Source of the DNA: Hyaloraphidium curvatum SAG 235-1
Taxonomy: Eukaryota; Fungi; Monoblepharomycota
NCBI GenBank assembly: GCA_025558095.1
Contig: JAIVFI010000026.1
Location: forward strand, 372,001 to 436,000
Direction of reading: 5' to 3'
DNA: 64,000 nucleotides
Shown piece after piece: positions 638 to 49,428 of this stretch. Every line of letters begins with the position of its first letter. Position 1 is the first letter of the stretch. A program made the position numbers and the translations under genes. The notes below the pieces were generated by a model, which saw only the letters and a list, made by a program, of their open reading frames with translations, had not been told where the DNA came from and ran no database searches.

Positions 638-738
638 TCCGCGCGAAGAAGACGAATGTTGCGCGCATAGTAAAATTTGGTGCATAGTTTTTGGGATGAG
701 TCGCGCATAGTATTGGGATGATGTGCGCACAGTTTTTG
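638..738 (+). repeat. Left (sub)terminal inverted repeat, GCGCATAGT array
   Basis: GGTGCATAGTTTTTGGGATGAGTCGCGCATAGT...GCGCACAGTTTT versus the right-end reverse complement GGCGCATAGTTTTAGGATGAGGCGCGCATAGT...GCGCACAGTTTT. Confidence 0.75.
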
Positions 739-1568: not shown

Positions 1569-2114
1569 TCACGAAACAGAGATCTCCGCTAGACTAATCT
1601 TGCGAATCGGCGCCACCTGCGGCTGCAATTGCCAATGCCGCTCACCGCCGCTCTCCCGCGGCCGCCGACGCCTCTGCCGCCTGCTGCCGCCTTGCGCCAG
1701 TGCGCCCGGGCGCTGACCGACGCATCTGAAGTTGCCGATGTCTCCGGGCCCAGATCGACGCCTCTGCATCGAATGCAAGCGCTCCTCTGCGATCCGGACA
1801 CTGCCGGACGTCACCGCCAGACCTTGGTGCACTCCAATGAGGTAAATGAAAAACGGATGGAGGGGAAGTAATGGAGCAACAAGCACCAAGATGAAGGATA
1901 TCCCGAGCAGGGACCATCCAATGAAGGTGTTTGGCCCCAGGTGCCCGTGTTTGCTTGTATCGCTGAAAGGCAACGCAAAGAAGAACATCAGGAACACCAT
2001 GGGTGCTGCGACAATGAAGCTCACGATTGCTAGTACGACGTACACCGGGATGTTGACCCGCGTCGGGGGCACAACTGTGGCCGACATTGATGAATCCCTC
2101 GTCTGCAAAAGCAC
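1569..2114 (-). CDS. Hypothetical membrane protein
   Basis: Two long hydrophobic segments (IPVYVVLAIVSFIVAAPMVFLMFFFAL; FIGWSLLGISFILVLVAPLLPL). Confidence 0.5.
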   Translation of the reverse strand: MLLQTRDSSMSATVVPPTRVNIPVYVVLAIVSFIVAAPMVFLMFFFALPFSDTSKHGHLGPNTFIGWSLLGISFILVLVAPLLPLHPFFIYLIGVHQGLAVTSGSVRIAEERLHSMQRRRSGPGDIGNFRCVGQRPGALAQGGSRRQRRRRPRESGGERHWQLQPQVAPIRKISLAEISVS

Positions 2115-2135
2115 TCCTCCTACCGTCTGCCCTTC

Positions 2136-3419
2136 TCACTCGGCACCCCGCCAGCGACGTCCGTGCCAGAGCACACCGGGTCTGGAACTCCCCCTCCCCG
2201 TCAGCTCAAACAACAGGGCGTTGATCTCCCCGAGCAGAAAGTAAGACCGCCACTGCAATCGGGCCGGTGCATCACGTGGTTCATTCCAGTCATCGTAGAT
2301 TGCGTGGAAATCAATCTCATCCTGGAAGGAGTCGGCCAACTGCCGTAGCCCTTCGATGAAAGCAAAGTCCGAATCTCGCCACCGCAGTGCCGAAACCAAG
2401 CCTTGCACCATTGCTGGATGCATCCACGGCCGCAAGGCCTGGTCCAGCCTCTCTGGTACCAGCAAGCGCAGATTGACCCCCGTGTCCATGAGTTCAACCC
2501 AATCCACGGCGTCAAAGTCTTGAAAGTGCGACTTTTCGGCCGCAATACGCTCGGCAGCTGCGGCGAGACACTCCAGTGCAGAGGCGTTCCGCCACGGATT
2601 AAGGCCCGCTGCCAGCTCCAACCAGCGTCCACCGGCCTCCAGTGCCTTGCGCACGCGCCGTGCGACACGCCGTGAACCGGCGATCTCGGCAGCGTAGAAC
2701 TGACAAAGCGTGAGCGCTTGTCGATAGCTCGCCTGCGAGAGATCGAAACACTGAATCGACGGTGGTGCGCACAGCTCAAGAACGCTCAATAGCGAAATAT
2801 CCTCTTCGTCGCCGTTGTCCTCCCAGAGACGCAGAGACCGATGGTTGAACGGGCGTCCGACAAGGCGATATGAAGACAGGAAGTCCAATGACAGGTCAGC
2901 CCCGCTCCTCTGCGCCTCAGACGCTGCTTCGAAGAGCTGCGGATCACCAATACCGTAGATGCGGAGGATGTCATTTGTTGCGACGCACTTGACGTTGCCG
3001 CCAATGACGTCCGTGATGAGATGTCCCCAATTGTTGCACCGAAACCGAGTGTCAGAGCTCATCGCATCACTTCTCATCCCGGCACTGGCAATGTCGAGAA
3101 GACAGTTGTCCGCCATGTGTCGGCGAACGTCGTCAGATGAGCAGATGAGAACGGCCATTTCGCGGTTCTCCGGATCCCGGATCCATGACGCGTCGTCCAA
3201 TGAATGAAACAGCAGCGGGGTCTCCGTCATGAGCCAGTACAGCCTTTCGGCGGCGACCCGGGGGCCGTATCGCGCGATAAAGGCCGCCGCGCGGGTGTGC
3301 GAGTCAAACGCTGCGCGGGTCGCTCGACACGTGACGGACAGCCGATACGCCGCTCCCGCCGGGAGATAGGCGGCGATGCGGATCAAAAGCTCAACGGGAA
3401 ATCGTGGAAGGGCGGCCAT
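2136..3419 (-). CDS. F-box-like protein
   Basis: N-terminal LPRFPVELLIRIAAYLP...LSVTCR F-box pattern from the ATG at 3419. Confidence 0.65.
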   Translation of the reverse strand: MAALPRFPVELLIRIAAYLPAGAAYRLSVTCRATRAAFDSHTRAAAFIARYGPRVAAERLYWLMTETPLLFHSLDDASWIRDPENREMAVLICSSDDVRRHMADNCLLDIASAGMRSDAMSSDTRFRCNNWGHLITDVIGGNVKCVATNDILRIYGIGDPQLFEAASEAQRSGADLSLDFLSSYRLVGRPFNHRSLRLWEDNGDEEDISLLSVLELCAPPSIQCFDLSQASYRQALTLCQFYAAEIAGSRRVARRVRKALEAGGRWLELAAGLNPWRNASALECLAAAAERIAAEKSHFQDFDAVDWVELMDTGVNLRLLVPERLDQALRPWMHPAMVQGLVSALRWRDSDFAFIEGLRQLADSFQDEIDFHAIYDDWNEPRDAPARLQWRSYFLLGEINALLFELTGRGSSRPGVLWHGRRWRGAE

Positions 3420-3579
3420 GAGTCGACGGGGCAGGGTTAGTTCAGAATTGCAAGTGGTGTTGGGGCCACAGCTCACAGTTTGCGGCAACTCAACTCGCCC
3501 TCAGCACTCGCACCGGAAGAAATAGATTCCAGATAAGCCTCTTGCCATATGACCACGGGGACGTCTTCCCCTGTCAGCT

Positions 3580-3611
3580 GTGATACGGCAGAGCTGCGTG
3601 TACCGTATCAC
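3580..3611. promoter_or_regulatory. Putative tyrosine-recombinase core site (13-6-13 inverted repeat)
   Basis: GTGATACGGCAGA-GCTGCG-TGTACCGTATCAC, arms 11/13 complementary, ~155 bp upstream of the recombinase. Confidence 0.4.
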
Positions 3612-3765
3612 CAGGAGATCACGGAACAATCGCACTAAGGTACCATAATGATTACGGAGGCGTCATTTTTCTGGCCGGCCGAACGCTTTAATCCATTTTA
3701 TTGCTTCCCGTGGAGCGCATTTTTGTGAGTTCTTTATTCTCATTGCTCGCCTCATCGTGTCCAGG

Positions 3766-5247
3766 ATGACGGAAGCGATTCGTGGAGCAGACATCGATGT
3801 GGACGAGGTCCAGGAGTTTCCGATTAGGCTGGTAAAGCGCCCGTCGCAGCGTGACCGCAAGAACCAGAAGAGCATTCGCTCGAAAGCGAGAGCTTGGGAA
3901 AGGGTCGATGAATTGATTGCAGCCGGAAAGAAGCGCTTTCCCGGTTTTGCGTCCCTGGACGGGCGCTTCCTGGAGTGGTTGAAAGCAAATCCGAAGGCGA
4001 ACGGTTCTGTCCACAGTCCCGTAACGCTTCTGCAGTATCACACCGTATCCGGAATCATTGGTCGTTTGATCGTAGGAAAGAAGCGCGGCATCGCTTACGC
4101 AGAGACCTTCCTTCAACTCCCAGTGGACGATCCTTCCGTGCAAAACTTCCGGGTTTGGTTGAACTACTACACACCCGAACGCATCTGGAGGCTTGTCCAG
4201 AAACACACATCCAATTTCGCTTCCCAGAGCGCATTCGCAGTGGCTCTCCTGAAGATGTTTACCTTTCATCGTGGATCCTCCGACCACGCAGACGTGATGT
4301 TCTTCACTGACAAAATCAAGGAGCTAGGGAAGATGACAGCTGTTGCAAAGCGATTGCAGCTGCCGCAGTTGGGCGCGGGGGACCTTCAAGTCGAATTTCG
4401 CACAATTCGAGACAAGGTACGGAGCTACGCGGAAAACATCCTCACGCGTTTTGAAGCAGCACCACCTGACGTGATTCAGAGAGGACTATCCGAAATACAG
4501 GCAGCTGCCATCACATCGCTTTACGTCCTGCACCCGCCTTCGCGTGCAGACTACGCATACCTTCGATTCACTCCCTCGAAAACCCACAACTACTTTGATG
4601 GTGGGGAGAACAGTCTTGTGTTTGTTAATTTCAAAACGGCCGCTACGTACGGTGTTGTTCGCGTCAAGATTGAGAATCCGATCGTGAGTCGACTTTTGCA
4701 CTTGCTCGCTGACAAGATCCGATCGCAGAATGGGGATCGCTACGTGTTCATGTCGCGACCCGGTAAGGCTTTTTCGACTGAGGCCGGGTTTGGACAACAC
4801 GTCGGCTACTGTTTCCGGCGTGTAACCGGCACGGCGCTTCGTCCTACCGCACTCCGGCGTCTCTATTTGAGCGATCACGCGAACGGCACCGTTGATCAGA
4901 ACGGGGAACACCGAGTGCCTTCCATGGAGGAAAACACGTCGCTTGCACGCAACATGATGCACAGCGTGGGCATGCAGGCATCCTACCGTCGGATGCCAAC
5001 GCTAGATCACATTCGGTCTACGATTCCTACCAACGACCCTGCGGTGCCCCGTGACGTTGCTTCGGCTGCAATCGAAGCTGTTGGTCGGATGCAGGCCGTG
5101 CAAGCTGACGGGTCAAGGGAGCAGCGCCTGGCGTGGGAAAAGGCCAAGCGCGACCTGGTGCGAAAAGCGGTGGAGATCGACGAGGCGCGTGAAGCAGCCG
5201 CTAAACGGCATCGTGAGAGACTCCACCAGAGGCGGTTGTCACAGTAG
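3766..5247 (+). CDS. Tyrosine recombinase/integrase (PLV/virophage/NCLDV-type)
   Basis: HPPSRADY (R), NFKTAATYG (K), RPTALRRLYLS (second R; H of HxLR absent), LARNMMHS...QASY (H, Y nucleophile). Intronless. Confidence 0.85.
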   Translation: MTEAIRGADIDVDEVQEFPIRLVKRPSQRDRKNQKSIRSKARAWERVDELIAAGKKRFPGFASLDGRFLEWLKANPKANGSVHSPVTLLQYHTVSGIIGRLIVGKKRGIAYAETFLQLPVDDPSVQNFRVWLNYYTPERIWRLVQKHTSNFASQSAFAVALLKMFTFHRGSSDHADVMFFTDKIKELGKMTAVAKRLQLPQLGAGDLQVEFRTIRDKVRSYAENILTRFEAAPPDVIQRGLSEIQAAAITSLYVLHPPSRADYAYLRFTPSKTHNYFDGGENSLVFVNFKTAATYGVVRVKIENPIVSRLLHLLADKIRSQNGDRYVFMSRPGKAFSTEAGFGQHVGYCFRRVTGTALRPTALRRLYLSDHANGTVDQNGEHRVPSMEENTSLARNMMHSVGMQASYRRMPTLDHIRSTIPTNDPAVPRDVASAAIEAVGRMQAVQADGSREQRLAWEKAKRDLVRKAVEIDEAREAAAKRHRERLHQRRLSQ

Positions 5248-5763
5248 TCGCTCCGCCGAATAGATCTCCGTGAGTTCAGGATCTTCCATCATGTCGCGGG
5301 CAACCAGTCTTAGCACGGTGAGAAGCCCGCGCCGCCAACTCAGTGTCCATTTGTTGGCTGGCGACGTGAGAATGTGCAAGACGGTTTCGTGATCCTTGAT
5401 CCAATCAAATGTGCGAGGAATCTCCGTCCACTGCAATGTGGAAGCCACCCGCATCAGTCGCTTCCACGTCTTGCGGTCGGCAAGGTCCCCAGTGACGTCG
5501 CGCGACGCACGGTGGAGCCGACAGAGCAGCATCAACCTCCGACGGTAAGTCAGTTCCGTTGAGTTCGACCAGACAAACTCTTTCGCTCCCGCCGCGGCAA
5601 GCAAAGTGATCGGATGGCTTGCAATCGCCGCCTTGTCATCAGCCGTTTGTGCGGGACGGCCGAATCGTGTCGCTTGCGGTTCGACGGCTGCCATGGATTG
5701 TGCTGCGATCTTGACGTCCATCGGAGGATGTATTTCTGGCCCCGTAGACGGCATCGGGGCCAT
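5239..5763 (-). CDS. Small helical protein, paralog 1 of 4 (recombinase core-binding-like)
   Basis: WSNSTELTYRRRL...EIPRTFDWIKD...WRRGLLTVLRL, pattern shared with 6193-6630 and 6678-7160. Confidence 0.7.
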   Translation of the reverse strand: MAPMPSTGPEIHPPMDVKIAAQSMAAVEPQATRFGRPAQTADDKAAIASHPITLLAAAGAKEFVWSNSTELTYRRRLMLLCRLHRASRDVTGDLADRKTWKRLMRVASTLQWTEIPRTFDWIKDHETVLHILTSPANKWTLSWRRGLLTVLRLVARDMMEDPELTEIYSAERLL

Positions 5764-6220
5764 GGGTTACACCAAAGACGATGCGCTATCGCGTGCCATC
5801 GCTAAGGCAGCAGAACAGGCCGGTTGGAGCCCTTCGTCGACCGATCTCAATCGAAAGGCCATTCTCCGTGTTGCAGCGCTCTACACCGCAACTCGCACCC
5901 TGAGACAGGAAGGCAAGCGGGACCCAGATTGGATTCTCATCGATCGCAAGGCCCGCCGGCTACGCGGCCCGTTCTCGACGTCGGTGCTCAGAAAACCTCG
6001 CTTCTTCAAATGGCTGTCGAAGCGAGCACCGTGGACCGCTCCACGTATCAGAAACGTAAGATGGGCGTTGATGGCAGCCGCCTACGCCGCCTTTGGCGTG
6101 GGTGCAGACGAGGTGTTTTCCCGGCGGGTGGCGGCGATCCGAAGGATTGAAAAGGTGGTCTTGACGAGTGGGAGGCGCGGGTTGACGATGGTTCAACAGG
6201 GGGAAGAAGAGGAGGTCTGA
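5762..6220 (+). CDS. Small helical protein, paralog 2 of 4
   Basis: MGYTKDDALSRAIAKAAEQAGWSPSSTDLNRKAILRVAALY matches IAKSIGKAAKAAQWTKAS...LRRIAALF and ALDRAARELRWSAAT...ILRLAKLY. Confidence 0.65.
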   Translation: MGYTKDDALSRAIAKAAEQAGWSPSSTDLNRKAILRVAALYTATRTLRQEGKRDPDWILIDRKARRLRGPFSTSVLRKPRFFKWLSKRAPWTAPRIRNVRWALMAAAYAAFGVGADEVFSRRVAAIRRIEKVVLTSGRRGLTMVQQGEEEEV

Positions 6221-6630
6221 GGCGTTGACTGGCGCCTTTGGCGGTACGCTGATTCGTTGTACTGCAGGGCCAGATGCGGATCGTCCAAAAAGACATCAGA
6301 AATGAGGCGAAGAACCTGGAAGAGGTTGGCTCTCCACCGGATTCTGTGCGGATCGTCGTCAGCACTCAGAATGTGGTCCAGAACATGCACGTCACGGATC
6401 CATCGGAAGCTGGCCGGGAGCTCATTCGCGGGGATCATGCGGGCAAGGGCGTCGATGTCGTCAAACATCGGAGTTGATGCGTTGCGTTGTCGGAGTGCCT
6501 GGAAGGCCGCGTACAGCTTGGCGAGACGGAGGATATGGTTCTTTGTGTTGCGGTGCGTGGCCGCACTCCAGCGCAGCTCACGGGCTGCACGATCAAGCGC
6601 AGTGTTGTAGAAGTGCGTCGCCGCAGTCAT
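6193..6630 (-). CDS. Small helical protein, paralog 3 of 4
   Basis: RAARELRWSAATH...ELPASFRWIRD...WRANLFQVLRL...DPHLALQY. Confidence 0.7.
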   Translation of the reverse strand: MTAATHFYNTALDRAARELRWSAATHRNTKNHILRLAKLYAAFQALRQRNASTPMFDDIDALARMIPANELPASFRWIRDVHVLDHILSADDDPHRIRWRANLFQVLRLISDVFLDDPHLALQYNESAYRQRRQSTPQTSSSSPC

Positions 6631-6677
6631 CGATGAGGGTTGAACGGCAAAAACGTCTTCCTACATCTGCCGATTCG

Positions 6678-7160
6678 TCAACCGAGGGCGTCCGGTTGGT
6701 CTGCGTAGTCACCAATTGCAATCTGCGAAGTCTTTGCCGGAAGTGCCTGCTCTTGCTTGAGGTTCCGGGCGCTGTACTTGGATGCGAGGATCCGGTCGCC
6801 GAGGAAGAGTTCCGCAGCCATCTTCAGGGCAGAGATCGACCCGCGTTTGTACGACGGCGATCCCCCAAGCCGAGCCACGATGCCTTGAACGACTCTCCGA
6901 TCCCTCAGCCACGCAAAACTCTTTGGCAATTCGCTTCTGGGCAGCCTTCGTGAGATGTCGTCAATCAACTCCCACGATTCGTCGTCAAGTTTGTCGGGTT
7001 CAACACTGTCCAAGCGATTCCGCAGCTTGCGAAGAGCGCAGAACAGGGCTGCGATTCTCCTCAGCCTGTGCGAATAGGAGTCGGCCGACGCTTTGGTCCA
7101 TTGCGCCGCTTTGGCGGCTTTGCCAATGCTCTTGGCGATGAGATCCGGTTCCTTCGGCAT
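6678..7160 (-). CDS. Small helical protein, paralog 4 of 4
   Basis: KAAKAAQWTKASADSY...ELPKSFAWLRD...YKRGSISALKM...DRILASKY. Confidence 0.7.
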   Translation of the reverse strand: MPKEPDLIAKSIGKAAKAAQWTKASADSYSHRLRRIAALFCALRKLRNRLDSVEPDKLDDESWELIDDISRRLPRSELPKSFAWLRDRRVVQGIVARLGGSPSYKRGSISALKMAAELFLGDRILASKYSARNLKQEQALPAKTSQIAIGDYADQPDALG

Positions 7161-7199: not shown

Positions 7200-7931
7200 T
7201 CAACCCCACCAAAACTTCCAGAGGCATCCTCGCTTGCGGCGGACGACATGCATTGACTCGTCGGTCGGTTCCGAATCCAGCGCCTCTAGCCGTTGTAGCT
7301 GCCGATCGATGTCTGCAAGCATTCGCGTCGTCTCCCTGTCCAAATCCTCGGCCAGTCGCATCTTGCGTCTTGCCGCATCCTCCAGCACGCGTGCGCGTTC
7401 TATGCGGAGCTCTTCGACTTCGGCGGCGGGGTTTGCGAACTCCGATGGGGGCTCAATGTTGAAGCACGATCGGAACGACGCCAGCACCGCCTCGTCGATT
7501 GGAGTCGGGGAGATCAAGCGGGTTGCCGTTCTGCGATTGTCGTCGACCACGCGTCGGTAGATGCAGATGGGCTGGAATTCGCGGAACAGTGCTGCCATGC
7601 GTCTGGCGAGATCTTCCGTGTCGTTGGGTGCTGCGCCGAGGAACTGTGCCAGCTTGGTCCGTTTCACCCCCTCCCGCGGGTACGGCGCGGCGGAAGACAG
7701 CAGCCCATGGAGCTTTGCCCAGCCCAACAAGACTCTCTCTGCCTCCAGAGCCTGTGCGCGATCGACAAAGGCTGCTCTGACAATGTGCTTCATCTGACGT
7801 TGAGCGTAATCCCGGGTCGGATCGGTGGAATACCCCACCTTGGCGAGGTTTGGGTTCGTTGCGTGCACTGCCAAATACACGTAGCAGAGGCTGTCGATCC
7901 GGAAACAGGCGCCCGCGGGGATGTCGGACAT
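7200..7931 (-). CDS. GIY-YIG/T5orf172-like protein with C-terminal coiled coil
   Basis: YVYLAVHATNPNLAKVGYSTDP...ALEAERVLL pattern. Confidence 0.65.
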   Translation of the reverse strand: MSDIPAGACFRIDSLCYVYLAVHATNPNLAKVGYSTDPTRDYAQRQMKHIVRAAFVDRAQALEAERVLLGWAKLHGLLSSAAPYPREGVKRTKLAQFLGAAPNDTEDLARRMAALFREFQPICIYRRVVDDNRRTATRLISPTPIDEAVLASFRSCFNIEPPSEFANPAAEVEELRIERARVLEDAARRKMRLAEDLDRETTRMLADIDRQLQRLEALDSEPTDESMHVVRRKRGCLWKFWWG

Positions 7932-8051
7932 GATTCGGCCGTTTTTCGCTGTTTGGGCTTAAGGTGCTCAGGTGGCTTCCCGGGTCCTCGAAACGTCTTC
8001 CCGCCGCTGCCAAAAAACTCCGGAAAAGGGGAGACCCAGTAGAACGACGGC

Positions 8052-8834
8052 ATGCTGCAGCTTCCGGAGCTTGACACGGCAGGGATCGCGGCGATTGCCA
8101 AAGAGATCCCGTACGGCGTGTGGTTCATCTGCGGCAAACGCGGATCGGGCAAATCGGTCCTCGCCAAGTGGATCATGAGCGCAGTTGCCGAGCGCTTCGG
8201 GCTCTTTGTTGCCGTTTCGTCCACGGAGGGGTTCAATCGCCACTATTCGAGCTTTCTGCCCAAGGCCTTCTGCCATCACGCATACAGCCCCGAAGCGCTT
8301 GCACGGATCGTCGATGCCCAGAGCCGCCGCGTGAAAGAGTTGGGCGTCTCCAAGGAAACCAGCCTTCTTCTAGTGCTTGACGACGTGTTGCATGACGGTC
8401 AAGAGCTCTTCAAAGACAAGAATCTGAAGCACATCTTCATGAACGGCCGACACATTGGAATCTGTCTTCTCCTGCTTGTGCAATACATTGTCGCCGTGCC
8501 GTTGGCTCTCCGCAGCAACGTCGACATCACAATCAGCTTCGCAGACGACACATACGACGTAAGACAGCGTCTTTGGAAACTGGCCGGTGGAAGTCTGAAG
8601 TACCCTCAATTCTGCGAGTTCTTCAACCGCGCTACGGAAGGTAGAAGGGCGCTCGTCATTGTCGCGCGTGCAACAAAACAGGGAAAGATGTTTTGGGTGC
8701 TTGCCAAAGACGCCCCAAGTCTGCGCCTTGGCAGTGACTTGATGTGGTCCTTTCAGCGCCGCTGGGGCATTGACCGTCTGCCCAGGGCGGAGCAGGCTCT
8801 GTACCGCTCCAGATTCGTCGCAGTGAGCAAGTAG
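8052..8834 (+). CDS. A32-like virion DNA packaging ATPase (FtsK-HerA family)
   Basis: Walker A GKRGSGKS, Walker B LLLVLDD, arginine finger MNGRH, and LLVQY; 260 aa. Confidence 0.9.
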   Translation: MLQLPELDTAGIAAIAKEIPYGVWFICGKRGSGKSVLAKWIMSAVAERFGLFVAVSSTEGFNRHYSSFLPKAFCHHAYSPEALARIVDAQSRRVKELGVSKETSLLLVLDDVLHDGQELFKDKNLKHIFMNGRHIGICLLLLVQYIVAVPLALRSNVDITISFADDTYDVRQRLWKLAGGSLKYPQFCEFFNRATEGRRALVIVARATKQGKMFWVLAKDAPSLRLGSDLMWSFQRRWGIDRLPRAEQALYRSRFVAVSK

Positions 8835-8945: not shown

Positions 8946-9836
8946 ATGACGACGTCCCTTGCAGAGCAGGCCGCGCTTTCCGCGGCTTTGTTTAGCCGGC
9001 GCGACGAGGAAATCGTCGCGCTGGAGCTCTCTGCGATCCGCACGGCGGTCTCCTTCATGTCGCGATTCGGCCACTCGCACACCCTGCACCAGATCGCGAC
9101 ATTCACGCCCGGTCATTCGACGTACAGCATCCACAGCGTGACTCAAAAGGTCCTTGACGCTCTCAACGCCGAGGGATTCGCCGCCGTGCCCCTACCATCC
9201 CACAGGCCCGGCGCCATCGTCGTCGCCTGGGGCGACGCCGGCGATCGTCTGTCAGCGGCTCAAATGGCCATGCGGCGCGCGGAAAGGCGAGCGGAACGGC
9301 ATGCAAAGGCACGGGCAGACGCAGGCAAGGCGCTGAGGGCCGAGTCGCCGCAGCTGGCCGAGTCGCGGCGAGAGACGGCAAATGGGAAGCGACGGGAGGG
9401 GTCGCGAAGCTCAGGTCGGAAGCGAAAGCGGGACCGGGCGGACTGCGGGAGAAGCGACAGCGAGGCGACAGCCGTTGCGTCGACGGTCGGCAGCAGGAGC
9501 AGCTTGGCGTCGGCGGCTACAGCGGCCACAGTAGCAGCAGGGGCGGTAGCTCCGGCGGTGCCGACGGTGGCGCCGGCAGCGGTCGGTGTCCGCCGGCGTC
9601 TCTACGTGCCCGGAGAGAGCGTTGCTGAGAGCGCCAGCAGCCGCGCTCCGCAGCGGACCGCCGCCCCCGCCCGGGATCCCGTCGCGACGCTGATTACGCG
9701 GCCGTCAGCCGTCGTTCCGCGGCAGCGGGAGGAGCCGAGGATCCTTCTTCCGACCCCGACGCCCCAGGAGCTGGCGTTGTTTTCCTTTTGCGACCATGCA
9801 CAGGTCACACTCCCGCCCGGAATTCCGACCACCTAG
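8946..9836 (+). CDS. Protein resembling a conserved NCLDV family of unknown function, with low-complexity tail
   Basis: HQIATFTPGHSTYSIHSVTQKVLDALNAEGFAAV...AIVVAW fits the remembered pattern VP.F..G.P.Y...L...GF.V...L.ISW (possibly DUF5759, from memory). Confidence 0.55.
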   Translation: MTTSLAEQAALSAALFSRRDEEIVALELSAIRTAVSFMSRFGHSHTLHQIATFTPGHSTYSIHSVTQKVLDALNAEGFAAVPLPSHRPGAIVVAWGDAGDRLSAAQMAMRRAERRAERHAKARADAGKALRAESPQLAESRRETANGKRREGSRSSGRKRKRDRADCGRSDSEATAVASTVGSRSSLASAATAATVAAGAVAPAVPTVAPAAVGVRRRLYVPGESVAESASSRAPQRTAAPARDPVATLITRPSAVVPRQREEPRILLPTPTPQELALFSFCDHAQVTLPPGIPTT

Positions 9837-9841
9837 TGCGA

Positions 9842-10429
9842 ATGACCGCCGCTTGTGCCGCCTCCAAGGCCAGTTCCGACGCACTGGGCATGTTTGGAGG
9901 CGTGGACAACGCCGACGAGCTCACGGACGACGTTCTGCGGCACCTGCTTGTCGCGTGGCGCGCAAGCGGGCAGGGCGGTCACGATGTCTACTGGGATCTC
10001 GCCATCGGAGCGCTGTGTCTGGCCGACGGACGGGGAGACGCGCATGCTGCGGCGTTTTGGACGCAGATCGGCGCCATGGCCGCTCCCGGCGGCATTGGGA
10101 AGGGGGAGACGGCGGAGGCGGCGTTGGACCGCGGAGTGGGGAGCGTACAACTGCTCCAAGCGGTCGCTGCCGGGGACTTGGTGCGGCTCCGGCAGTGGCT
10201 CTCTGCCGGCTGGAAGCCGAGCTTTGTGGGATGTGCGGCCGGGTCGATCCGTGGTCGGGACGCGATGGACGTCGTGGAGCTCCTGCGCGCGCTTCGCACG
10301 CACGGGGTGCGGTTGCCGCCCGCTGACAAGTTGGACTGGGACAGCCTCCAAGCTGGAGACAAGGGCGAGGCGATTTTGGTGGCCAGCATGTATCGGGAAG
10401 ATGCGATTGCACTACAGGGTCTGCTGTGA
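9842..10429 (+). CDS. Hypothetical helical protein, paralog of 26559-27242
   Basis: FW...PGGIGKGETAEAALDRGVGSVQL...GWKPSFVG versus FW...PGGIRDRESPQRAMERGIGSTQL...GFRPGFAG. Confidence 0.65.
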   Translation: MTAACAASKASSDALGMFGGVDNADELTDDVLRHLLVAWRASGQGGHDVYWDLAIGALCLADGRGDAHAAAFWTQIGAMAAPGGIGKGETAEAALDRGVGSVQLLQAVAAGDLVRLRQWLSAGWKPSFVGCAAGSIRGRDAMDVVELLRALRTHGVRLPPADKLDWDSLQAGDKGEAILVASMYREDAIALQGLL

Positions 10430-10437
10430 ACGTGAGG

Positions 10438-11301
10438 CTAGAAGCCGCCGAACGCGTCCTTGAACCTGAGCCTCGCAGCGGCGTTGTCCGGCAGGGCGAT
10501 GAAGCGGGCCCAGACGCGCGCAGGGGTGTCTTTCATGGAGAGGCGCACGGCTGCGTTGCGCTGGAAGGCGGCCGTAGCCGAGGTGTAGCGGAAGTCTTCG
10601 CCAGAGACGATCGCAGAGATGGTGAGCTTGAGGTAGCGCGCTTCCGGCGGTAGGTTGGAACGGTGCTCGAACGCCGAATTGAGGAGCTCCAGGAAGGCTT
10701 GATCCAGGTCCTCGTACACGCCGAGTGCAGCGCCGACCGGGGGAGATTGCTTGACATCCGTTGCGACGAGCACGTAGGCGATGGTGGGCTTGACGGAGGC
10801 TTCCGTCGGCGCCTCCGATCCGGCCGTGTCGTCCTCCTCGTCAAACACGACGCTGGCCTCGTCGTCGGCAAACACGCGGTCCTGAATGCTGACCCTGGGT
10901 GTCAGCGACTGGATCTTTTGGGTCGGGACGATGCGGGGGAACGGGCTGTTGCGGCCGCGCGTCGAAGACTTGGGCGGGGTTGCGCGCGGAGTCGACGGCT
11001 GAGGAGCTTCCGGCGCTTCTTCCTCCTCAACAGAGCCGTCCTCCGATTCGTCCTCCGCATCGTCGGCCGTCGTGACTGTTTGGGAGAGCGGCGACGGGCC
11101 TTTGACGGGAGCCCTGCGTTTGATCGAAACGCGCACCTGGTCGGAGGCGGAGGTAGAGGCCGACGAGGCTGCCGAAGCAGTGGAAGCAGTGGAAGCCGTG
11201 GTTGCGGACGACATCGAAGAGACCACGCTGGAGGTGTCGTCGTCGTCGTCCTCAACCTGCTTGCGCTTGTTGTTCACACGGGGGTTGGTGCGGGGCGGCA
11301 T
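10438..11301 (-). CDS. Hypothetical protein, acidic/Ser-rich N-terminus and globular C-terminus
   Basis: ATG start, NLS-like KRK, upstream T-tract, ordered C-terminal ~100 aa. Confidence 0.6.
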   Translation of the reverse strand: MPPRTNPRVNNKRKQVEDDDDDTSSVVSSMSSATTASTASTASAASSASTSASDQVRVSIKRRAPVKGPSPLSQTVTTADDAEDESEDGSVEEEEAPEAPQPSTPRATPPKSSTRGRNSPFPRIVPTQKIQSLTPRVSIQDRVFADDEASVVFDEEDDTAGSEAPTEASVKPTIAYVLVATDVKQSPPVGAALGVYEDLDQAFLELLNSAFEHRSNLPPEARYLKLTISAIVSGEDFRYTSATAAFQRNAAVRLSMKDTPARVWARFIALPDNAAARLRFKDAFGGF

Positions 11302-11331
11302 GTCGGTCTGTCTGGATCAACTTGGATCAGG

Positions 11332-11769
11332 TTAGCGCCAGTCTGGAGAAAAAAAGCACCGGCCATTCGTCGATCTTGCGTCATTGCCCTCTGGTGAACG
11401 GAGCCCACAATGGCGGCGCCAACTGGCGGGGCGGGAGCTTGACGGAGGCACGTCCAAGCCCAGGGGCAGCGGTGGCGTTGTGAAGAGCGGGAGGACATCT
11501 CTTGCGCGGGCGTCGCCGTTGGAGGCGTCCGTTTGGCAGCCGCAGCGAGTCCGACACGGGCAATCGCCGCAGCAGCCTCGTCCTTCGCGACCTCCCGCAG
11601 CAGGACGCTGCTCCGCGTCGTCGGAGTTTTGGATGATGTAAACTTGCGAGTCAGGACGGGAGCGCAGAAACTGCTGCTCACGTTGGAAGCGCAGAGACGT
11701 CAGCAGCATCAGAGCGACCATGGTCAGCAAACCCAGGACAAGAGCCCTCTGTTGATCCATGTCGATCAT
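11332..11769 (-). CDS. Small membrane-anchored protein (possibly frameshifted)
   Basis: N-terminal TM ALVLGLLTMVALMLLTSL; plausible coding signal shifts between frames downstream. Confidence 0.4.
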   Translation of the reverse strand: MIDMDQQRALVLGLLTMVALMLLTSLRFQREQQFLRSRPDSQVYIIQNSDDAEQRPAAGGREGRGCCGDCPCRTRCGCQTDASNGDARARDVLPLFTTPPLPLGLDVPPSSSRPASWRRHCGLRSPEGNDARSTNGRCFFSPDWR

Positions 11770-11835
11770 GCCGGCGATCCTCAGAAAAAGCACTCTTCAA
11801 GCCGACCCGGGCCGCTCCATGAGTCGGCTTTTGGC

Positions 11836-13442
11836 TCACGCCCGCGGGCGCTTCGGCGCCGTCTTTGCTGCTGCGGCTTTGGTCGCTTTGGCCGCTTTTC
11901 TCTGTTTCGCGGGTTGCGGCGACGCACTGCGTTTCCGCTTGGCCCCTGCAAGGGTGATCGCTTCGGCAGTCCGGCCGCGCTTCACCCGTCCCGCAGTTGC
12001 CTCCGTCGGAGACCCGCCGCGCTTCCTCTTGCCGAGGGCCTCTTGCACGGCCTCCCGGGAGCGCTTCGAACGACGTGCGGCGGGGCCGGGGCTGGCGGAG
12101 CGCCGGCGCTTGCCAGTGACCTCTTCGTTTCGGGGGCCGTGCGGGGGCGCTTCGCCTTGGCCTCGGCGGGAGGCGGTGTGCGGGATCGTCCGCGCTTCGG
12201 GATGGTGCGGCGGGGCAGGGCGGTGCCGGAATCTTCGACCATGTCCATCGCGTCGTCGTTGGAGGGGTCGTCGGGCCATGCTCCCGGCGATTCGATGGGG
12301 GAGGTGCGCTTCGTCCGGCGTGGGAGTGCGCTGCCTTCGTCCTCAATGAATTCGACAAAGGAAGCTTCGTCGTCGGAGTCCGTGGCGGCATCGGGCGCGG
12401 GCGCAGCGGCGGTGGCAGGCGTCGGATGGGCGGCAGCGGGGCCGGTGGGCGTCGGGGAGTCCTGTGCCTCAGCTGCTTCGGCCTCGTCAGCCGCGTCCTG
12501 CGCGCCGGGCTCAGCTGGGCCGTCGGCGGCGTCCCAGCCCGCGGGCAGATCCCAATGATCCTCTGCTTCGGCCGGAGCTTCCCAGAACCGTGCCTCTTCG
12601 TCTCCGCCGGCGACGCTACCGGTGCGGGCGTCGGGCTCTTCGCGCTCTTCGCGGTTTGCGAGAGCCGCAGAGAGGCGGGCGACTTCTTGGCGGCATTCTG
12701 CGAGCGCGGCGCTGAGCTTGGTGTTCTGCGCGTCGGACCGGGAGCGGTGGGTCTCGCACAGTGCCAAGCGATGCCTCAGCTCCTGCATGTCCCGGGTCCC
12801 CTCTGCCATCACATCGCGCAATTCTCCAATCGCCTCTTCCTTCTCGGCAACAAGAGCCTCGCAACGTCCCAGCCTATGGCGGAGGGCATCCCGGTCCGCG
12901 GCGGAGGCCTGGGCGTGCCTCAGCGCGTCGCGGAGAGCGGCTGCATCCGCTTGGTGCGCTACTTTCTCGGCGATCATCGTATTGAGCTCGTCCTCCAGCT
13001 CTCCCATGGCCCGTTGGGCATCGGCCAGCTCTCTCTTGCAAGCGGAGGCGTCGCCGGCTTCGATTTGAAGCGCACGGATCGTCTGCTGGTATTCCGACAG
13101 CCGGTGACGCAGTGCTTTCGCCGACGTGTGCGACGTGTGTGGCATCGATGCGATCTGCTTCTGCAGCTTGCGGATCTGCTGCTGGAGTGCGCGGACGGAG
13201 GCTTTCGTAGGCTCGGCAGGTGGGGCGGCGCCGGGCGCGGCGGCGGCTGGCTCCTGGCGCGGCGGGTCTTGTGCTGCCACCGGGGTTGCCGGCGGCGGTG
13301 GTGCACGCGGGGTCCGCGGGACCGTGCGGTTTTCGCAGTGGACATGTTGGTAGCAGTACCTTGAGCCGTCTTGGGCGTTGCGGCTGCAACGGTTGCGATC
13401 GCCCGATGATTTGATACAGGCGCATTGGACTGGTTCGGACAT
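11836..13442 (-). CDS. Cys/His-motif coiled-coil protein with basic tail (probable frameshift near 12130)
   Basis: N-terminal CACIKSSGDRNRCSRNAQDGSRYCYQH (a motif common in large DNA virus proteins), then a long coiled coil. A K/R-rich tail (KRRRSASP...KAAKATKAAAAK) continues in another frame (ORF 11836-12279). Confidence 0.6.
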
Positions 13443-14025
13443 CGTCGTTGGCCGTGTGGATCGGGAATAATTCCATCTGCGTGGTCGCGGTGGGGCGGGG
13501 AAAGGGGCGGTGTGACACTTTTAGGTCCGTGACACATGGAACTGGGTCGCCACGCGGCGACCAGCTAGCTAGTGCAATGAGCCTCACGACCACGGCACGC
13601 CGCCGACTCCGTCTCCGTCTCCAGCCGACCGGTGACGGCCGCAACGGCGCTTCGTGCGTCTCCGACGTTTGTCCGCCGCCTCGCACGGGACCGGGGTCCA
13701 CAGAGCATCCGTCTTCGTCTTTGCGTGCGTGCCAGGTAGCGGCGATCGGGTGTGGGTGGCGGCCATCGGCGCGGGTGGTGCAGATCGGTGCTGGTGGCGG
13801 CGATCTGCGCGGTTGAGCGGCTTTGGCGGCGTCTGCGTCTGCGGGAGGCTCGTCGTGCCTTTGCGCCATGCGTCGCCTCTGCACTTCCGTCAGACCACGC
13901 GGCCACGGGAAGCGCAGCCCGTGCCATTGACCGCACTGGCTGCTCCGGACAGCTTCGTACACCCCTCTGGATCACGGTGGCGTTCATTTCGGGCTTTTTT
14001 GTGGCAACCGGGTGCTCATCGGGCG

Positions 14026-14546: not shown

Positions 14547-17500
14547 TCACTGGGCTGCAATGATGCGCCTACAGAGCCCCGTGTACTCGGCAGTTTTGTT
14601 CGCATCTTTCCTTTCTGTGCGCTCGACACGGCCTCCATCGACTTCAAACGCCTTGCGCGCAATCAGCTTTGTCATGTGCCTACCAAAAGCGTTCATCTTC
14701 ATCCGCTCCTCAATCGGATAGAAGTGTTCTTCGTAGTCGGCAAAGAGCTCCCTCGCTGAGACGGATTCCCGTGCAATCCGAGCGGCATCGATGGAAACTT
14801 CGTAGTTCGTAAGTATCCACCGCAGCACAGCATCGTTATCGTTCAAGTGTTCATCCGTAGTCTTCTTTATACTGGGAGGCGGTGTGAGGCCAGTCCCGTC
14901 TCCCGGTCGCTCCAGGGACGACTGGATGAAAGCATCCTTCCACTTACGGTATCCTTCAATGAGCCATTTCATCATCGCCATGCGCATCTCGGGTTTCTTT
15001 AATTCTCGCCCGAGTCCAGAGTCCTTCATCTTCCAGTATTCCTCACCAGCAGCTGCGGCCGGGTCGTCGACGAACTTTGTGCGGTACGGCACATTCCGTG
15101 CCCTACGAGTGATCGCGTCGCTTGTTGCATCAAACTTTGGAATATCGTTGATGAAAACCCACATCTTTGCGATTAGCGAAAACTGAACGGTGTTGCCGTT
15201 GAGAAAACGCCCAGAGGTTCGATTGCCTGATGTGTAGACGTTGAAGCGCTCCACATTCAACTTGCGCACCGGTCCAGATTCACTGATGATAACACAGCGC
15301 TTTCCGCGGAGAGCCATCAATTCTGGAGTCGCCCGCTCGACATCCCCCACATGGTCACAGAGGATGCCGATCTTGGTTGAACCGGCGTAATCTCCCAGTG
15401 CGTATTCCATGGCCTTGCCTTTGACGCCCTTGCCGTTGGATGCGCTTCCGAGGCAAAAGTGCATCACCTGTTCGAAGCATTCCCCGGTGATACTGTATCC
15501 CGATGCTCGGTGGGCGTATTCGTACTCTTCTTCGACGGGGTAGATGTCCTTCATGATTTGCACAATGCGCTCGTAGTCCACGTTTGGAACTTCATCCAAA
15601 GGAACAAAGTCGTATCCGGTGGTGTAGCTCAGCATCCATTCGCGACGTCCACCTGGGTAGAAGAGCCCCGTTTCCAGATCGTACGTCCCGTTGTTGAACT
15701 GAACTGCGTATGGCTTCGTATCAAGCAATTCGTCGAACTGGCTTGCATCGACGCCCATCTCTGCAGCCAGTTGGTTCACAACATGCCCCTGAAACGTGTC
15801 CGACTCAAGGTCCATCAGCACTTTCCGTATCTTCGCGACCTTTGCTGCCAGTAGGTCTTTTGCCTCATCTGTCGCACCATTCTCACTAGCGTCGCGAAGC
15901 AGGCGTTCATAGACGCGAAGAGCAAGAACAAAAGGCGAATAAGCCTCCTCCTGTCGAATGTATCTGAGCACAGCATGGCTCCCGTCCTTCTTCTTGGTAG
16001 GATCGTAGCGCCAGCGTGACCCCGACCAGTGCCCCCATGCACCGGAGGCTTCCGAATAAATGAAGGGACATCCTTCTTTCGATTCGAGAGGGTTGTTGAT
16101 GGCCAAGAACTTGGAGATCGATGAGTGTCCGCCGCTCAATGCTTTCAGAAGAGACCTGTTCCATTCGGGCCCCCGATCGGGATCAACCGTGACGCCGTCT
16201 GCTTCAAATTCGTGCCAAGCCCCCCCTTCATCGACCGCGCCGTAATTGTGGTTGTGCACGACGGTCGTGTTTTGGTTGATGACCATGAGCAAAGAGCAGT
16301 GCAAAGCAGCCCGATCCCGTGGTATCGGCATGGGCTCTTTGAACAAGTTGCGATTGCACTGTGGGCAAGACAACTGGACCCCCAATCCAGTCACCGAACA
16401 GTTGCGCGGCGTCTTTTTGCGGCAGAATCCGCACTTCTTTGTTCCCTGTACGCGCGCAACGGTCCCTTCAAAACCGGTCATGGTGCTGTGGTTGCGCAGA
16501 AACACCTCCTTTGGCTCGCAGTTGGCGATCGACGAGGTGAGTTCGATGGCCTCCTGGTGCGCAGAAGACGAAAATTCGATGGGCTCCATATTCCAATTCG
16601 CGCCCCAAATTGCGGCGGCGTCAGCGGCCTTCATTTTCGCCTTCTTGCTCTCTCCGGAGTCCCATGTAACGACCACGTCTTTTCCCTTCGCAATTTCGAC
16701 GAAAAAGCCCTCCCCAACAACGCGGTAGGTCAAAACACCATCAAGCATCGTTTTCGAGACCGTCTTCCGTGCAGACAACACGTGTGGTCTCTTGTCGAAC
16801 TTGCATAGAGCACCCACTGCCGACTGAAGGACCGCCACCTGCTCGGCATCTTCCATTCTGAACATGGGAACCGAAACCGACTCTGACGATACGCTGGCGC
16901 AGTCTTGCTCCGCAAGGCCACTCGCTTCAACCATCACGCAATCACCGTCAGTGTCGTTCGCACCTGCAACCACTACAGCAGGTTGCGAGGCCTCGTCCGA
17001 TTCCATGGCAGGTTCAGCCTCCATGTCATTGGTGGTCTCCACATCGCCGGCAGCGACTTCTATCGCCACCCTCGACGCCCGCACGGCCGCGGACGGACTG
17101 TACGCGATCGGATCGGCCGCTTCTTCTTGGTTCCGCACCTTGCGTTTCAGGCCGAGAAAGAGCACCCGAACGCGAAGGCATGTCTCAGTCTGTCCCAGGA
17201 TCTCCTTTCCTTTCTTCAATGTCATGTTCTTTTCGCCGATGGTGACTCGCAGTCCATCGCTCAACGGGACCAAGATGTATGGGAAGTCGCCTGTGCAGAA
17301 GCGGATTGCAGTGTAGTCGACGCCCCCGACCCTCCGTGTGCCAAACAATGCCCGTTCGACCGCATGTGCAACAATCCGCTGCTGCTCCGTGCTCATGCTC
17401 TGATTCTCCGGAAAGATCCGCGTCAAGAGAGCTGTCGGGACGGTGAGTTCGAGCACCTTTCCCGCCTCCTTGCACTCTGTCGCCTCGCAGATATAGACAG

Positions 17501-20170: not shown

Positions 20171-20760
20171 TCAAAACCTGCGCACACCCGTCCTTCCACC
20201 GGCCAGCGCAACAACCAACCCATCCGGCATCCTGGTCGGTACCCTATCAAATGGGCTTGCCCCGTCGCTCCACGTCCACGCCACCTCCTCCCCGCCCGGC
20301 CCGATGTACCCCGCAGGAGGCACCACCACCCAACCGCCAGCATTCCTCCACTGCACCTCCACCACTTCGCCATCCACCTTGTACCTTCTCGCCGAAGCCT
20401 GCATCCGCGCCAAGCGCTGATCGTACCGAAACACCACCACACGACCATGCGGCCCGATCGCAGACACCGAATCCAAACCCGGCAACACCCCCATCCCGCA
20501 CTTGCCCAGCAACGCCTCCAGTCCGTCCTTGTCGTCGCACTCCAACGCCACGACGCCTCCAACGGCGCCCGTCGCAAGTCCCACGGCGTTGTGTTGCGGC
20601 AGCACCCGGTGCTCCACGTTCTTGTGCCAATTCAACGGGAGAGACACACGCTCCGATCCCGTGCGCGCATTCCAGCCGATGCACACGGGGAAGGCGACGT
20701 AGCCCAGCTCCTTGTACGCGCGAACGGCGTCGGCCACCGTCAATTCCGCTTCCGGCTTGG
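20171..20760 (-). pseudogene. Stand-alone, catalytically degenerate Prim-Pol domain
   Basis: HNAVGLATGAVGGVVALECD...GASPFDRVPTRMPDGLV aligns with the N-terminal Prim-Pol of 14547-19478 (HNGLCLVTGEPGGIFVIDGD...GASLFDRLPARMPDALV). Catalytic residues are replaced and there is no nearby in-frame ATG. Confidence 0.7.
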
Positions 20761-21056
20761 TACCGAGTGCAAAGCGCCTCGGCACCGGGGCAACACCTTG
20801 ACGGGCGTCTGCTGGCCATCGACGACAGTGTCCGACACGGGCCGAGATCCTTCGGGGGATGCCATCAACGATTTGAAGGCTCTGCGAGGATTCAAAAATC
20901 CGTCCGTGCGCGCCGCCGAGGCCGAAGCGAGCGCGTGATTGCAACCACCGTCCCACTTGCCCCTCTGTTTCCGCTTTCGCTGGTGACAATGCCTCGTCGC
21001 GGTCAGGGGCCCCATCATTCTCGAGCGGCGTTGGATCAGCCTGGATTGACTGAAGG

Positions 21057-21728
21057 ATGGGTGCTGCGGTGTCCACCCAAATTGCCGACACGACCAGTGA
21101 AATCTTAATCGATGTCATGATCTCCAACAGCGCCGAGTGCAGTGCCTTGTCGGAACAGCGCGGGAGCATCAATCTCACGGCAAAGGGTCCAATTGTGCTC
21201 CGGGATGGTGCCCGAATCAACCAAAATTCGAACGTCAGTCTTTCCTGTATTTTGGAAAGCACGAACGACACCAAACTCCGCTCAGATCTTCGTTCGCAAC
21301 TTTCGCAGGCGGTCAAGCAGGAGCTAGAGGGCCTGAATCTCCTGCAGACCGCGGTCAACGCCAACATCACGCGGCAGGTAGCGAAAGTGGCCCAAACGAT
21401 CGACATCCAGGACATCAAACGGCAGATCGGTTCGATCATTCAGCAGGGCGATATCACTTTGCGTTCGACCGATGACCGCATTGAACTCAAAGAAGCCGTG
21501 ATCGACCAGGACGCCACGGTACTGGTGAAGGCAGTATCCCAGACGGTCAACCGAAACGAAGCCGTGGCGGAGCTCCAAAACATGGTGACGCAGGAAAACA
21601 CACAAAAACTGGTCGGAATCATGACCGCGGGCGGTCTCGTCGTCATCGTTGTCGTTGTCGCGATCGCGTACTTTTGGCTCAACCACAGGAGCGACAGCAA
21701 AGGCCGAAACTCGGACGACGACGACTGA
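21057..21728 (+). CDS. Myristoylated virion membrane protein (poxvirus L1-like/NCLDV lipid membrane protein)
   Basis: MGAAVS myristoylation start, Q/N/S/T-rich ectodomain with Cys, single C-terminal TM helix (GGLVVIVVVVAIAYFWL). Confidence 0.8.
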   Translation: MGAAVSTQIADTTSEILIDVMISNSAECSALSEQRGSINLTAKGPIVLRDGARINQNSNVSLSCILESTNDTKLRSDLRSQLSQAVKQELEGLNLLQTAVNANITRQVAKVAQTIDIQDIKRQIGSIIQQGDITLRSTDDRIELKEAVIDQDATVLVKAVSQTVNRNEAVAELQNMVTQENTQKLVGIMTAGGLVVIVVVVAIAYFWLNHRSDSKGRNSDDDD

Positions 21729-46264: not shown

Positions 46265-46393
46265 AACTATGCGTGGCTAGCCCAAAACTGTGCGCCAAGC
46301 AACCACAAACTATGCGCGCCTCATCCTAAAACTATGCGCCGAAAATCCCAACCAATTGAGACTATGCGCAAAACATCTTTTGCTATGCGCGGA
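46265..46393 (-). repeat. Right (sub)terminal inverted repeat, ACTATGCGC array
   Basis: About six ACTATGCG/ACTGTGCG copies; reverse complement of the 638-738 array. Confidence 0.75.
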
Positions 46394-46410: not shown

Positions 46411-46610
46411 GGAGAAAGGAGATGGCCTGCACGGGAGCACGGGCAGAGCGAAAGAGGAGAGATGGCCTGCACGGGAGCACCGGCAGAGCAGAGAAAGAGA
46501 GATCACCTGCACGGGAGCACCGGCAGAGCAGAGAAGGAGAGATCGCCTGCACGGGAGCACCGGCAGAGCAGAGAACGAGAAAAGGCCCGCACGGGAGCAC
46601 CGGCGGGGTG
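46411..46610. repeat. 40-bp minisatellite, 5 copies
   Basis: ACGGGAGCAC recurs at 46431, 46471, 46511, 46551 and 46591. Confidence 0.9.
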
Positions 46611-49360: not shown

Positions 49361-49428
49361 ACCGTGGAACTCCTCAATGCCACGCACTCGTTCAACCTCG
49401 CATACAGCTGCCAACCATGCACTAGAAA

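Follow-up and report, generated by a model that had tools for sequence, protein, structure and literature searches.

The genome of the fungus Hyaloraphidium curvatum SAG 235-1 contains, within a virus-like element, a row of four small paralogous genes (P1 to P4) that lies directly beside the gene for a candidate tyrosine recombinase (YR). The DNA in question is a stretch of 64,000 nucleotides (nt) of contig JAIVFI010000026.1, here called the window. The four encoded proteins probably have the core-binding (SAM-like) fold, which in tyrosine recombinases forms the N-terminal domain. They are tentatively regarded as stand-alone DNA binders of this fold, which would bind specific sites of the element and thereby tune the recombinase. 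An earlier note on this DNA, made from the letters and their reading frames, had proposed that the four genes encode non-catalytic regulators derived from the integrase. The observation from which that note started is confirmed and its interpretation is supported at the level of the fold, while its claims concerning origin and function are weaker.

Four Paralogous Genes

The four genes are paralogs. In BLASTP comparisons, five of the six pairs of proteins align at 35-53 bits with 26-36% identity. The Smith-Waterman Z values, computed against 300 shuffles each, are 26.1 for P3-P4, 20.5 for P1-P3, 16.1 for P1-P4, 15.0 for P2-P4 and 9.4 for P2-P3, with P1-P2 being the weakest pair at only 3.9. 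The similarity is significant by both methods, so the want of mutual resemblance that the earlier note had named as fatal to its reading was not what was found. The motifs quoted in that note are also present in the alignment of the four proteins. Apart from the initiator methionine, the invariant columns are A16, W21, L39, A42, P72, F75, W77, L107 and D117 in the numbering of P3, and about half of these nine positions are hydrophobic (W21, L39, F75, W77, and L107). The motif LPxxFxW(I/L)xD, which P1, P3, and P4 possess, has a degenerate form in P2. Each of the four proteins is basic, with pI values of 9.5-11.3. No fifth copy was found in the window when the four-paralog profile was compared with 954 six-frame segments of at least 40 amino acids (aa) at E ≤ 10, and tblastn agreed.

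The open reading frames (ORFs) of YR and the four paralogs were located where the earlier note had placed them. The paralogs lie between YR and a packaging ATPase gene, 3-6.5 kb inside the left end of the element. The packing was said to be head-to-head and tail-to-tail, which holds for YR and P1 (tail-to-tail, with a 9-nt overlap), for P1 and P2 (head-to-head, with abutting starts) and for P2 and P3 (tail-to-tail, with a 28-nt overlap). The sole correction concerns P4 and P3, which stand in tandem, or head-to-tail, with 47 nt between them. The homologous part of P2 begins at the ATG at 5765, and longer in-frame starts are found at 5693 and 5606. The homology of P1 to the other paralogs begins near residue 48, and its first codon is ATC in a variant copy seen in contigs of the sequencing runs X2 and X3. 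Because the first ATG is ATC in that copy, the true start of P1 is probably an internal methionine.

The four ORFs have the composition of coding genes. At the first, second, and third codon positions, their GC content is 0.58-0.61, 0.47-0.55, and 0.65-0.68 (0.60, 0.50, and 0.65 in P1), a pattern matching that of the A32 and D5 genes of the element. Additionally, runs X2 and X3 contain contigs that are 95-99% identical to the window and span YR, all four paralogs, and the ATPase. The whole module therefore exists in a second copy that has diverged slightly. P0002, a protein annotated on another, 551,499-nt contig of Hyaloraphidium curvatum, is consistent with this, as it is a copy of P4 in which 6 of the 160 residues differ (counted by reading). 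The earlier note had suggested looking at synteny in related elements; the same gene set is indeed present in the X2 and X3 contigs, which offer only a glimpse of such elements. Among the 19 listed differences within P1-P4, to which nine undisplayed ones would have to be added and which come from contigs of low depth (2-8), 12 are synonymous, compared with about 25-28% expected (binomial p 0.0004-0.0015). By the same count, synonymous changes make up 7 of the 12 differences in YR and 3 of the 4 in the ATPase gene. The paralogs thus look like constrained coding genes, and the synonymous excess is a modest but real sign of it.

Public annotation represents the module poorly. The protein collection that was searched has no entry for the exact ORFs that YR, P1, P3, P4, and the A32 ATPase have at this locus. 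In P0003, a public gene model of 190 aa that corresponds to 5693-6477 of the window, the first two-thirds of P2 are spliced to the frame antisense to P3; the donor (GTAAGA) lies at 6057 and the acceptor near 6268. The ORF that aligns with the other paralogs is the unspliced P2, not this spliced form.

Predicted Fold of the Paralogs

The paralogs are probably of the core-binding fold, a conclusion that draws on structure prediction. The AlphaFold model of P3, made with the four-sequence alignment, is all-helical, with a pLDDT of 79.7 and a pTM of 0.74; the other four models range from 71.8 down to 53.4. When the P3 model was compared with 48,161 solved chains by VIA-align, ranks 1-12 were all occupied by core-binding domains of the tyrosine-recombinase type. 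These comprise XerA, archaeal Xer (7.4), the integron integrase VchIntI (7.4), the Ndc10 DNA-binding domain (7.2 and 5.4), XerD (6.5), the N-domain of a haloarchaeal integrase (6.5), Brujita Int (6.4), SroF (6.4) and three entries of lambda Int, among them the isolated core-binding domain 2oxo (5.7-5.9). In each of these alignments, 86-97 residues of the roughly 100-residue domain were covered, and the matched domain was always the N-terminal one of its chain. From rank 13 on the families are mixed, with IntS at 16, Cre at 17, MrpR at 19, a Bacillus integrase-like domain at 23, and IntB at 43. The earlier note would have been undone by folds unrelated to integrase core-binding domains, and the best matches of P3 are precisely such domains. 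Overall, the P3 model has the four- or five-helix architecture of the core-binding fold, which is extended to P1, P2, and P4 by homology. Membership is claimed at the level of the fold only, because no sequence profile matched.

The neighbors of P4 in the ESM Atlas offer a weaker but independent pointer to this assignment. Preplasmiviricota viruses are the source of the small proteins that make up the three nearest clusters. Within the first 30 ranks, the cluster at rank 20 carries Phage_int_SAM_1 in 12% of its members and that at rank 30 carries Phage_int_SAM_2 in 100%, with the recognition score of P4 being 2245, under the reliability line of 2300. A word-index homology search with P3 gave nothing at E ≤ 0.01, and nothing in PHROGs places the paralogs. 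A scan of IMG/VR with P4 led to three loci (L001-L003); the match in L002 runs antisense to a phage structural gene and was discarded as a chance pattern match.

The Neighboring Recombinase Candidate

YR is very probably a tyrosine recombinase, albeit a very divergent one whose activity is putative. The earlier note had called it a tyrosine recombinase outright, a label that stands at the level of fold and motifs but not by sequence, where no profile matched. YR has no match to any Pfam family at E ≤ 1, PF00589 included, and none in PHROGs, and neither the single sequence nor a two-sequence profile found a match among PDB sequences. The sole lead at the sequence level is the rank-1 cluster in the ESM Atlas, in which 15% of the members carry PF00589. 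Its sole database relative is P0001, a hypothetical protein of Hyaloraphidium curvatum with 66% identity, which is encoded on a 589,908-nt contig. A scan of IMG/VR with YR gave no match. A single locus from a metagenome scan with the YR alignment (L004) was rejected, since it is a bacterial helicase-nuclease-like ORF with one common peptide pattern.

The AlphaFold model of YR is poor overall (pLDDT 51.3), with most of residues 210-370 at 60-87 and two 10-residue blocks at 43-45. Nevertheless, the model shows the catalytic-domain fold of tyrosine recombinases, in which helices are combined with a three-stranded sheet bearing the active site. The best Foldseek matches are topoisomerase IB (E 0.016), XerA, an integrase from MRSA, Cre, Brujita Int, and Tn1549 Int, none of which reaches E ≤ 0.001. 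Counting from the GTG at 3757, motif and order point to R263 (PPSRADY), K293 (FKTAAT), R362 (TALRPT), and H402 and Y410 (MMHSVGMQASYRR) as candidate active-site residues. The H402-Y410 box presumably resembles box II of lambda Int. All five residues are conserved in P0001. In the text available of PMC10516654, the active-site set of the superfamily is given as R, K, H-x-x-R, H/W, and Y. A long C-terminal helical hairpin follows in YR at 412-496. Toward the other end, the alignments with Cre and XerA extend to model residues 97 and 27, respectively, with high rmsd, and YR seems to carry an N-terminal helical domain of its own. Because this domain seems to be retained, the paralogs are, as far as the model can be trusted, additions and not a split-off replacement.

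The Surrounding Element

The features of the window are collected in Table 1. Two inverted arrays of short iterons, spaced mostly 21-22 nt apart and belonging to a 48-nt inverted repeat (I6), bound what is by its gene content a virus-like element of about 45.7 kb, in which YR and the paralogs lie together with the genes for the ATPase and primase-helicases. For the exact 8-mer CTATGCGC, eight occurrences were counted, compared with 1.27 expected, and 0 of 100 shuffles reached eight. The element is regarded as virus-like because it encodes an A32-type packaging ATPase. Moreover, the combination of a packaging ATPase, a primase-helicase, an integrase candidate, and terminal inverted repeats is that of polinton-like viruses and virophages. 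Pfam recognized no capsid family among 39 ORFs of the element, nor did a PDB sequence search with three large ORFs. The two D5-type ORFs and the separate Prim-Pol ORF may have arisen by duplication, or the element may be composite or nested.

Table 1. Genes and candidate sites in the window (positions counted from its first letter).
Feature	Position	Strand	Remarks
Left terminal array	663-733	-	Four copies of the 9-mer ACTATGCGC or one-mismatch variants, 17-23 nt apart
F-box ORF	2136-3488		Neighbor of the module
Perfect 9-bp inverted repeat	3580-3611	.	GTGATACGG-N14-CCGTATCAC; about 150 nt upstream of the YR start; unique in the window
YR, highly divergent tyrosine-recombinase candidate	3766-5247	+	493 aa from ATG; start at 3757 if the upstream GTG is used
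P1	5239-5763	-	174 aa as longest ATG ORF; pI 9.5
P2	5765-6220	+	151 aa from MGYTKDD; pI 11.3; most divergent copy, central motif degenerate
P3	6193-6630	-	145 aa; modelled copy, all-helical, predicted core-binding (SAM-like) fold
P4	6678-7160	-	160 aa
Neighbor gene, weakly T5orf172-like (GIY-YIG-like) N-terminus	7200-7931	-	243 aa; Pfam E 0.18, below threshold
A32-type (FtsK/HerA-class) viral DNA-packaging ATPase	8052-8834	+	Pox_A32, E 3.3e-11, 43.6 bits against a cut-off of 22.8
D5-type primase-helicase	14547-19478	-	1643 aa; Prim-Pol + D5_N
Separate Prim-Pol ORF	20171-21439	-	
D5-type primase-helicase	29579-33712	+	1377 aa; D5_N + DUF5906
Right terminal array	46266-46390	+	Six copies of the same 9-mer ACTATGCGC in opposite orientation, 21-30 nt apart

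The ORFs around the module are not bacterial in character, and genes for WD40, RING, Zn2Cys6, and Rap-GAP proteins are found further right, with the host-type Rap-GAP gene at 49631 lying beyond the right end of the element. The ORF at 7200-7931 is co-directional with P4 and P3. Its product is identical to an annotated protein of Hyaloraphidium curvatum encoded on a 615,044-nt contig, which also carries P0003. Together with P0001, these matches place the window in a chromosome of this chytrid-type fungus. Within the element, the stretch 9000-14000 is GC-rich (63-70%, compared with 52-60% around the module) and contains low-complexity ORFs rich in Ala, Pro, and Arg. Repeat copies that are 92-93% identical lie on both flanks of the element (1-406, 48043-48392, and 49227-49363). 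The ORF at 2-382 on the - strand resembles by eye the C-terminal end of the ORF of a non-LTR retrotransposon, with no Pfam match. Just outside the right iteron array, at 46419-46618, there is a 40-nt tandem repeat in about five copies.

Among the upstream regions of 20 genes of the element, the only word held in common is the 11-mer GGAAGACGTTT, which was counted 3 times against 1.07 expected, a number reached by 9 of 100 shuffles. It may be a common promoter element, the count not being significant. Exact copies at 6651-6661 and 7991-8001 (-) lie upstream of P3 and of the ORF at 7200-7931. A scan for promoters and terminators of the bacterial type, which is not a relevant kind of scan for a eukaryote, stayed at the level of chance.

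The contigs of a further sequencing run, X1, are 100% identical to the window. Their word depth is 4-8 over 2000-3637. No contig covers the interval between 3638 and about 5844, and the depth from about 5845 up to 9000 is 80-276. That X1 is an RNA run is only a guess, as no run listed is recorded as RNA, and the gap, which takes in YR, P1, and the start of P2, is not evidence of silence or absence. In an RNA run, the step in depth would mean that P2 through the ATPase gene are strongly transcribed; in a DNA run, it would mean a 30-50-fold excess of the same region. One X1 contig omits the 69 nt at 3435-3503, which have GT..AG ends on the + strand. The omitted segment resembles an intron removed by splicing from a + strand transcript, which would run antisense to the F-box ORF.

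Possible Role and Alternative Explanations

Under the reading tentatively preferred here, the paralogs are stand-alone DNA binders of the core-binding fold, each of which would recognize its own DNA sequence. The candidate sequences are the terminal 9-mer iterons, the core sites of the recombinase, and the palindrome upstream of YR, with the repeated end sites or the crossover sites of the recombinase being the most plausible targets. By occupying or bridging such sites without cutting them, the proteins could assemble, direct, or block integration and excision. In bacteria, comparable work is done by arm-binding domains, Xis-type factors, and catalytically dead recombinase-like repressors, which would be the counterparts by analogy. 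Factors of the Xis type are small proteins that bend DNA, bind to arm sites, and are required for excision. We infer all three steps, namely DNA binding, the binding of these particular sites, and an effect on recombination. The fold and motifs of YR, the basic pI of the paralogs, and the presence at the ends of the element of repeated short sites suited to a site-specific binder count in favor of a DNA-binding helper. MrpR of SPbeta provides a precedent for proteins of the recombinase fold that have been turned into pure DNA-binding regulators, as described in the consulted portion of PMC10516654.

Several results weigh against this reading. With regard to the fold, the model was built from only 4 sequences, the pLDDT exceeds 70 in 2 of 5 models, and P3 is the sole paralog modelled. 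Foldseek comparisons of the P3 model with the PDB and BFVD stayed empty at E ≤ 0.001, Pfam recognizes no Phage_int_SAM domain in any of the four proteins at E ≤ 1, and a comparison of the A1 profile with PDB sequences returned designed helical proteins only (E ≥ 0.98) and no integrase. In a HMMER search of 1.84 billion representative proteins, the four-paralog profile found P0002, P0003, and otherwise only an artefact, P0005. The half-site GTGATACGG of the palindrome is not enriched, with 9 matches at one mismatch or fewer compared with 9.0 expected, and no site tied to the paralogs emerged. In YR, T359 stands where the first histidine of the H-x-x-R motif is expected, and its activity is uncertain because this second-box histidine is lacking. 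Finally, the paralogs show no sequence or profile similarity to the N-terminus of YR and thus no homology to it by this standard.

P0005 is a tandem-repeat protein of 1,598 aa, and the 6 stretches in which it is weakly matched were judged from its sequence to be due to repeats or composition. The family as searched is accordingly an orphan with no relatives outside one species.

The earlier note had gone further and derived the paralogs from this very integrase. That derivation is not supported, as neither profile nor local alignment detects any resemblance between the paralogs and the first 210 residues of YR (hhalign probability 1%; Z ≤ 0), and the N-terminal part of the YR model (pLDDT of about 35) is too poor for a structural comparison. 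A bolder version of the DNA-binding reading would have four "address" proteins split off and multiplied from the site-recognition half of the recombinase, together programming a single catalytic recombinase. Each protein would read a different site, and the set would decide where the recombinase integrates, when it excises, or whether it is silent. This is quite doubtful.

The main rival holds that the paralogs are core-binding-fold regulators of transcription or latency, or factors acting at genome ends or in packaging, which have no role in recombination and lie beside the recombinase by accident. It is on balance unlikely, although the evidence from fold, charge, and gene reality speaks for it equally. 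Moreover, P4 and P3 are read in the same direction as the ORF at 7200-7931, at close spacing, and the packaging ATPase gene lies nearby. The high-depth block of run X1 (80-276), whether from RNA or DNA, joins P2 (from about 5845), P3, and P4 with the ATPase, and MrpR (PMC10516654) and SroF provide precedents for repressors with a recombinase fold. Against it, no operator-like motif is common to the promoters of the element, the non-significant 11-mer being the only word found. It would also be an unlikely coincidence, though one that has not been quantified, for four copies of a recombinase-type domain to abut the only recombinase of the element.

The resemblance to recombinases could instead be that of any helical bundle, in which case the paralogs would be lineage-specific small viral proteins, such as adaptors or virion or core proteins, unrelated to recombinases. 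The VIA-align Z values below 8, which are common for helical models, would fit this explanation, as would the lack of a Foldseek, Pfam, or PDB sequence match, the sub-threshold ESM score of P4 (2245 against 2300), and the orphan status among 1.84 billion proteins. However, generic bundles would give mixed families, whereas all 12 of the 12 best rows among 48,161 chains are of one domain type, and the genes abut a recombinase gene; this explanation is thus improbable. Far less credible still is the view that P1-P4 are functionless pseudogenes, the decaying N-terminal fragments of duplicated recombinase genes. A fold typical of the N-terminal domain of recombinases, a recombinase next door, and a public annotation that mis-models or omits most of the paralogs could all be cited for it. 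Against it stand the synonymous bias (12 of 19), the intact ORFs of coding-type composition, and the spacers of 0-47 nt or overlaps between them. There is no room for remnants of a catalytic domain and no trace of any, as six-frame searches show four domains only. The duplications are also old, judging from the 26-36% identity, and yet all four frames are open.

Relation to Known Systems and Implications

Stand-alone or exapted recombinase domains are known from prokaryotes and from yeast Ndc10. The match in fold is to the core-binding domains of tyrosine recombinases such as XerA (5hxy), XerD (1a0p), VchIntI (2a3v), lambda Int (2oxo and 1z1b), and Cre (1kbu). Unlike these domains, the paralogs stand alone without a catalytic domain, in a row of four divergent copies and in a fungal virus-like element, and they have no detectable sequence similarity to the Phage_int_SAM families or to the neighboring recombinase. 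MrpR of SPbeta and SroF of phi3T are proteins of the recombinase fold that serve as prophage master repressors. According to the consulted part of PMC10516654, MrpR, with about 320 aa, retains a core-binding domain and, within the same chain, a catalytic domain that is dead, whereas only the core-binding-like part is found here, in four copies. The paralogs also stand alongside an apparently intact recombinase.

The proteins of bacteria and phages that consist of Phage_int_SAM only are likewise small and limited to the N-terminal domain of an integrase. One such cluster lies near P4 in the ESM Atlas, with 52 members, a 112-aa representative, and Phage_int_SAM_2 in 100% of the members. These are single prokaryotic genes that Pfam recognizes, and none forms a four-gene array or occurs in a eukaryotic virus-like element. 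The DNA-binding domain of Ndc10, from CBF3 of yeast, belongs to a large cellular kinetochore protein, not to a mobile element, and has no sequence relation to the paralogs.

The element as a whole resembles the endogenous polinton-like viruses and virophages of protists, which according to the portion consulted of Bellas et al. (2023; PMC10120064) share with it a recombinase, a primase-helicase, an ATPase, and inverted termini. In such viruses the integrating enzyme is a tyrosine recombinase or an rve integrase, and the replication gene encodes a primase-helicase or pPolB. At 45.7 kb, the element is larger than the 15-30 kb given there as typical, and no capsid gene was recognized in it by Pfam and PDB sequence searches. 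The text available of that survey of protists indicates that fungi were excluded (PMC10120064). Giant-virus-like and polinton-type integrase sequences have been described in zoosporic fungi, in a paper whose main text, as far as consulted, does not include Hyaloraphidium (PMC13533422). In the open-access literature that was searched, no account was found that links Hyaloraphidium curvatum with a tyrosine recombinase, nor one of an array of stand-alone core-binding paralogs beside a recombinase in a eukaryotic or fungal virus-like element, nor one of accessory or directionality factors for the tyrosine recombinases of polinton-like viruses. To our knowledge, the control of integration and excision in polinton-like and other integrating eukaryotic DNA viruses is essentially unknown.

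Against this background, the module is a concrete candidate, in which four constrained, basic proteins with a predicted core-binding fold are encoded beside a recombinase in an element with repeated sites at its ends. The recombinase and its satellite genes were invisible to Pfam, PHROG, and HMMER-scale searches and could be recovered only by structure, which matters for the annotation of endogenous viruses in fungi. If the paralogs set the choice of site in trans, they would be of interest as parts for programmable recombinases. If they were indeed "address" proteins, a tyrosine recombinase would receive its specificity in trans from a modular system, and the four would be the first set of accessory factors described for the integration of a virus in fungi.

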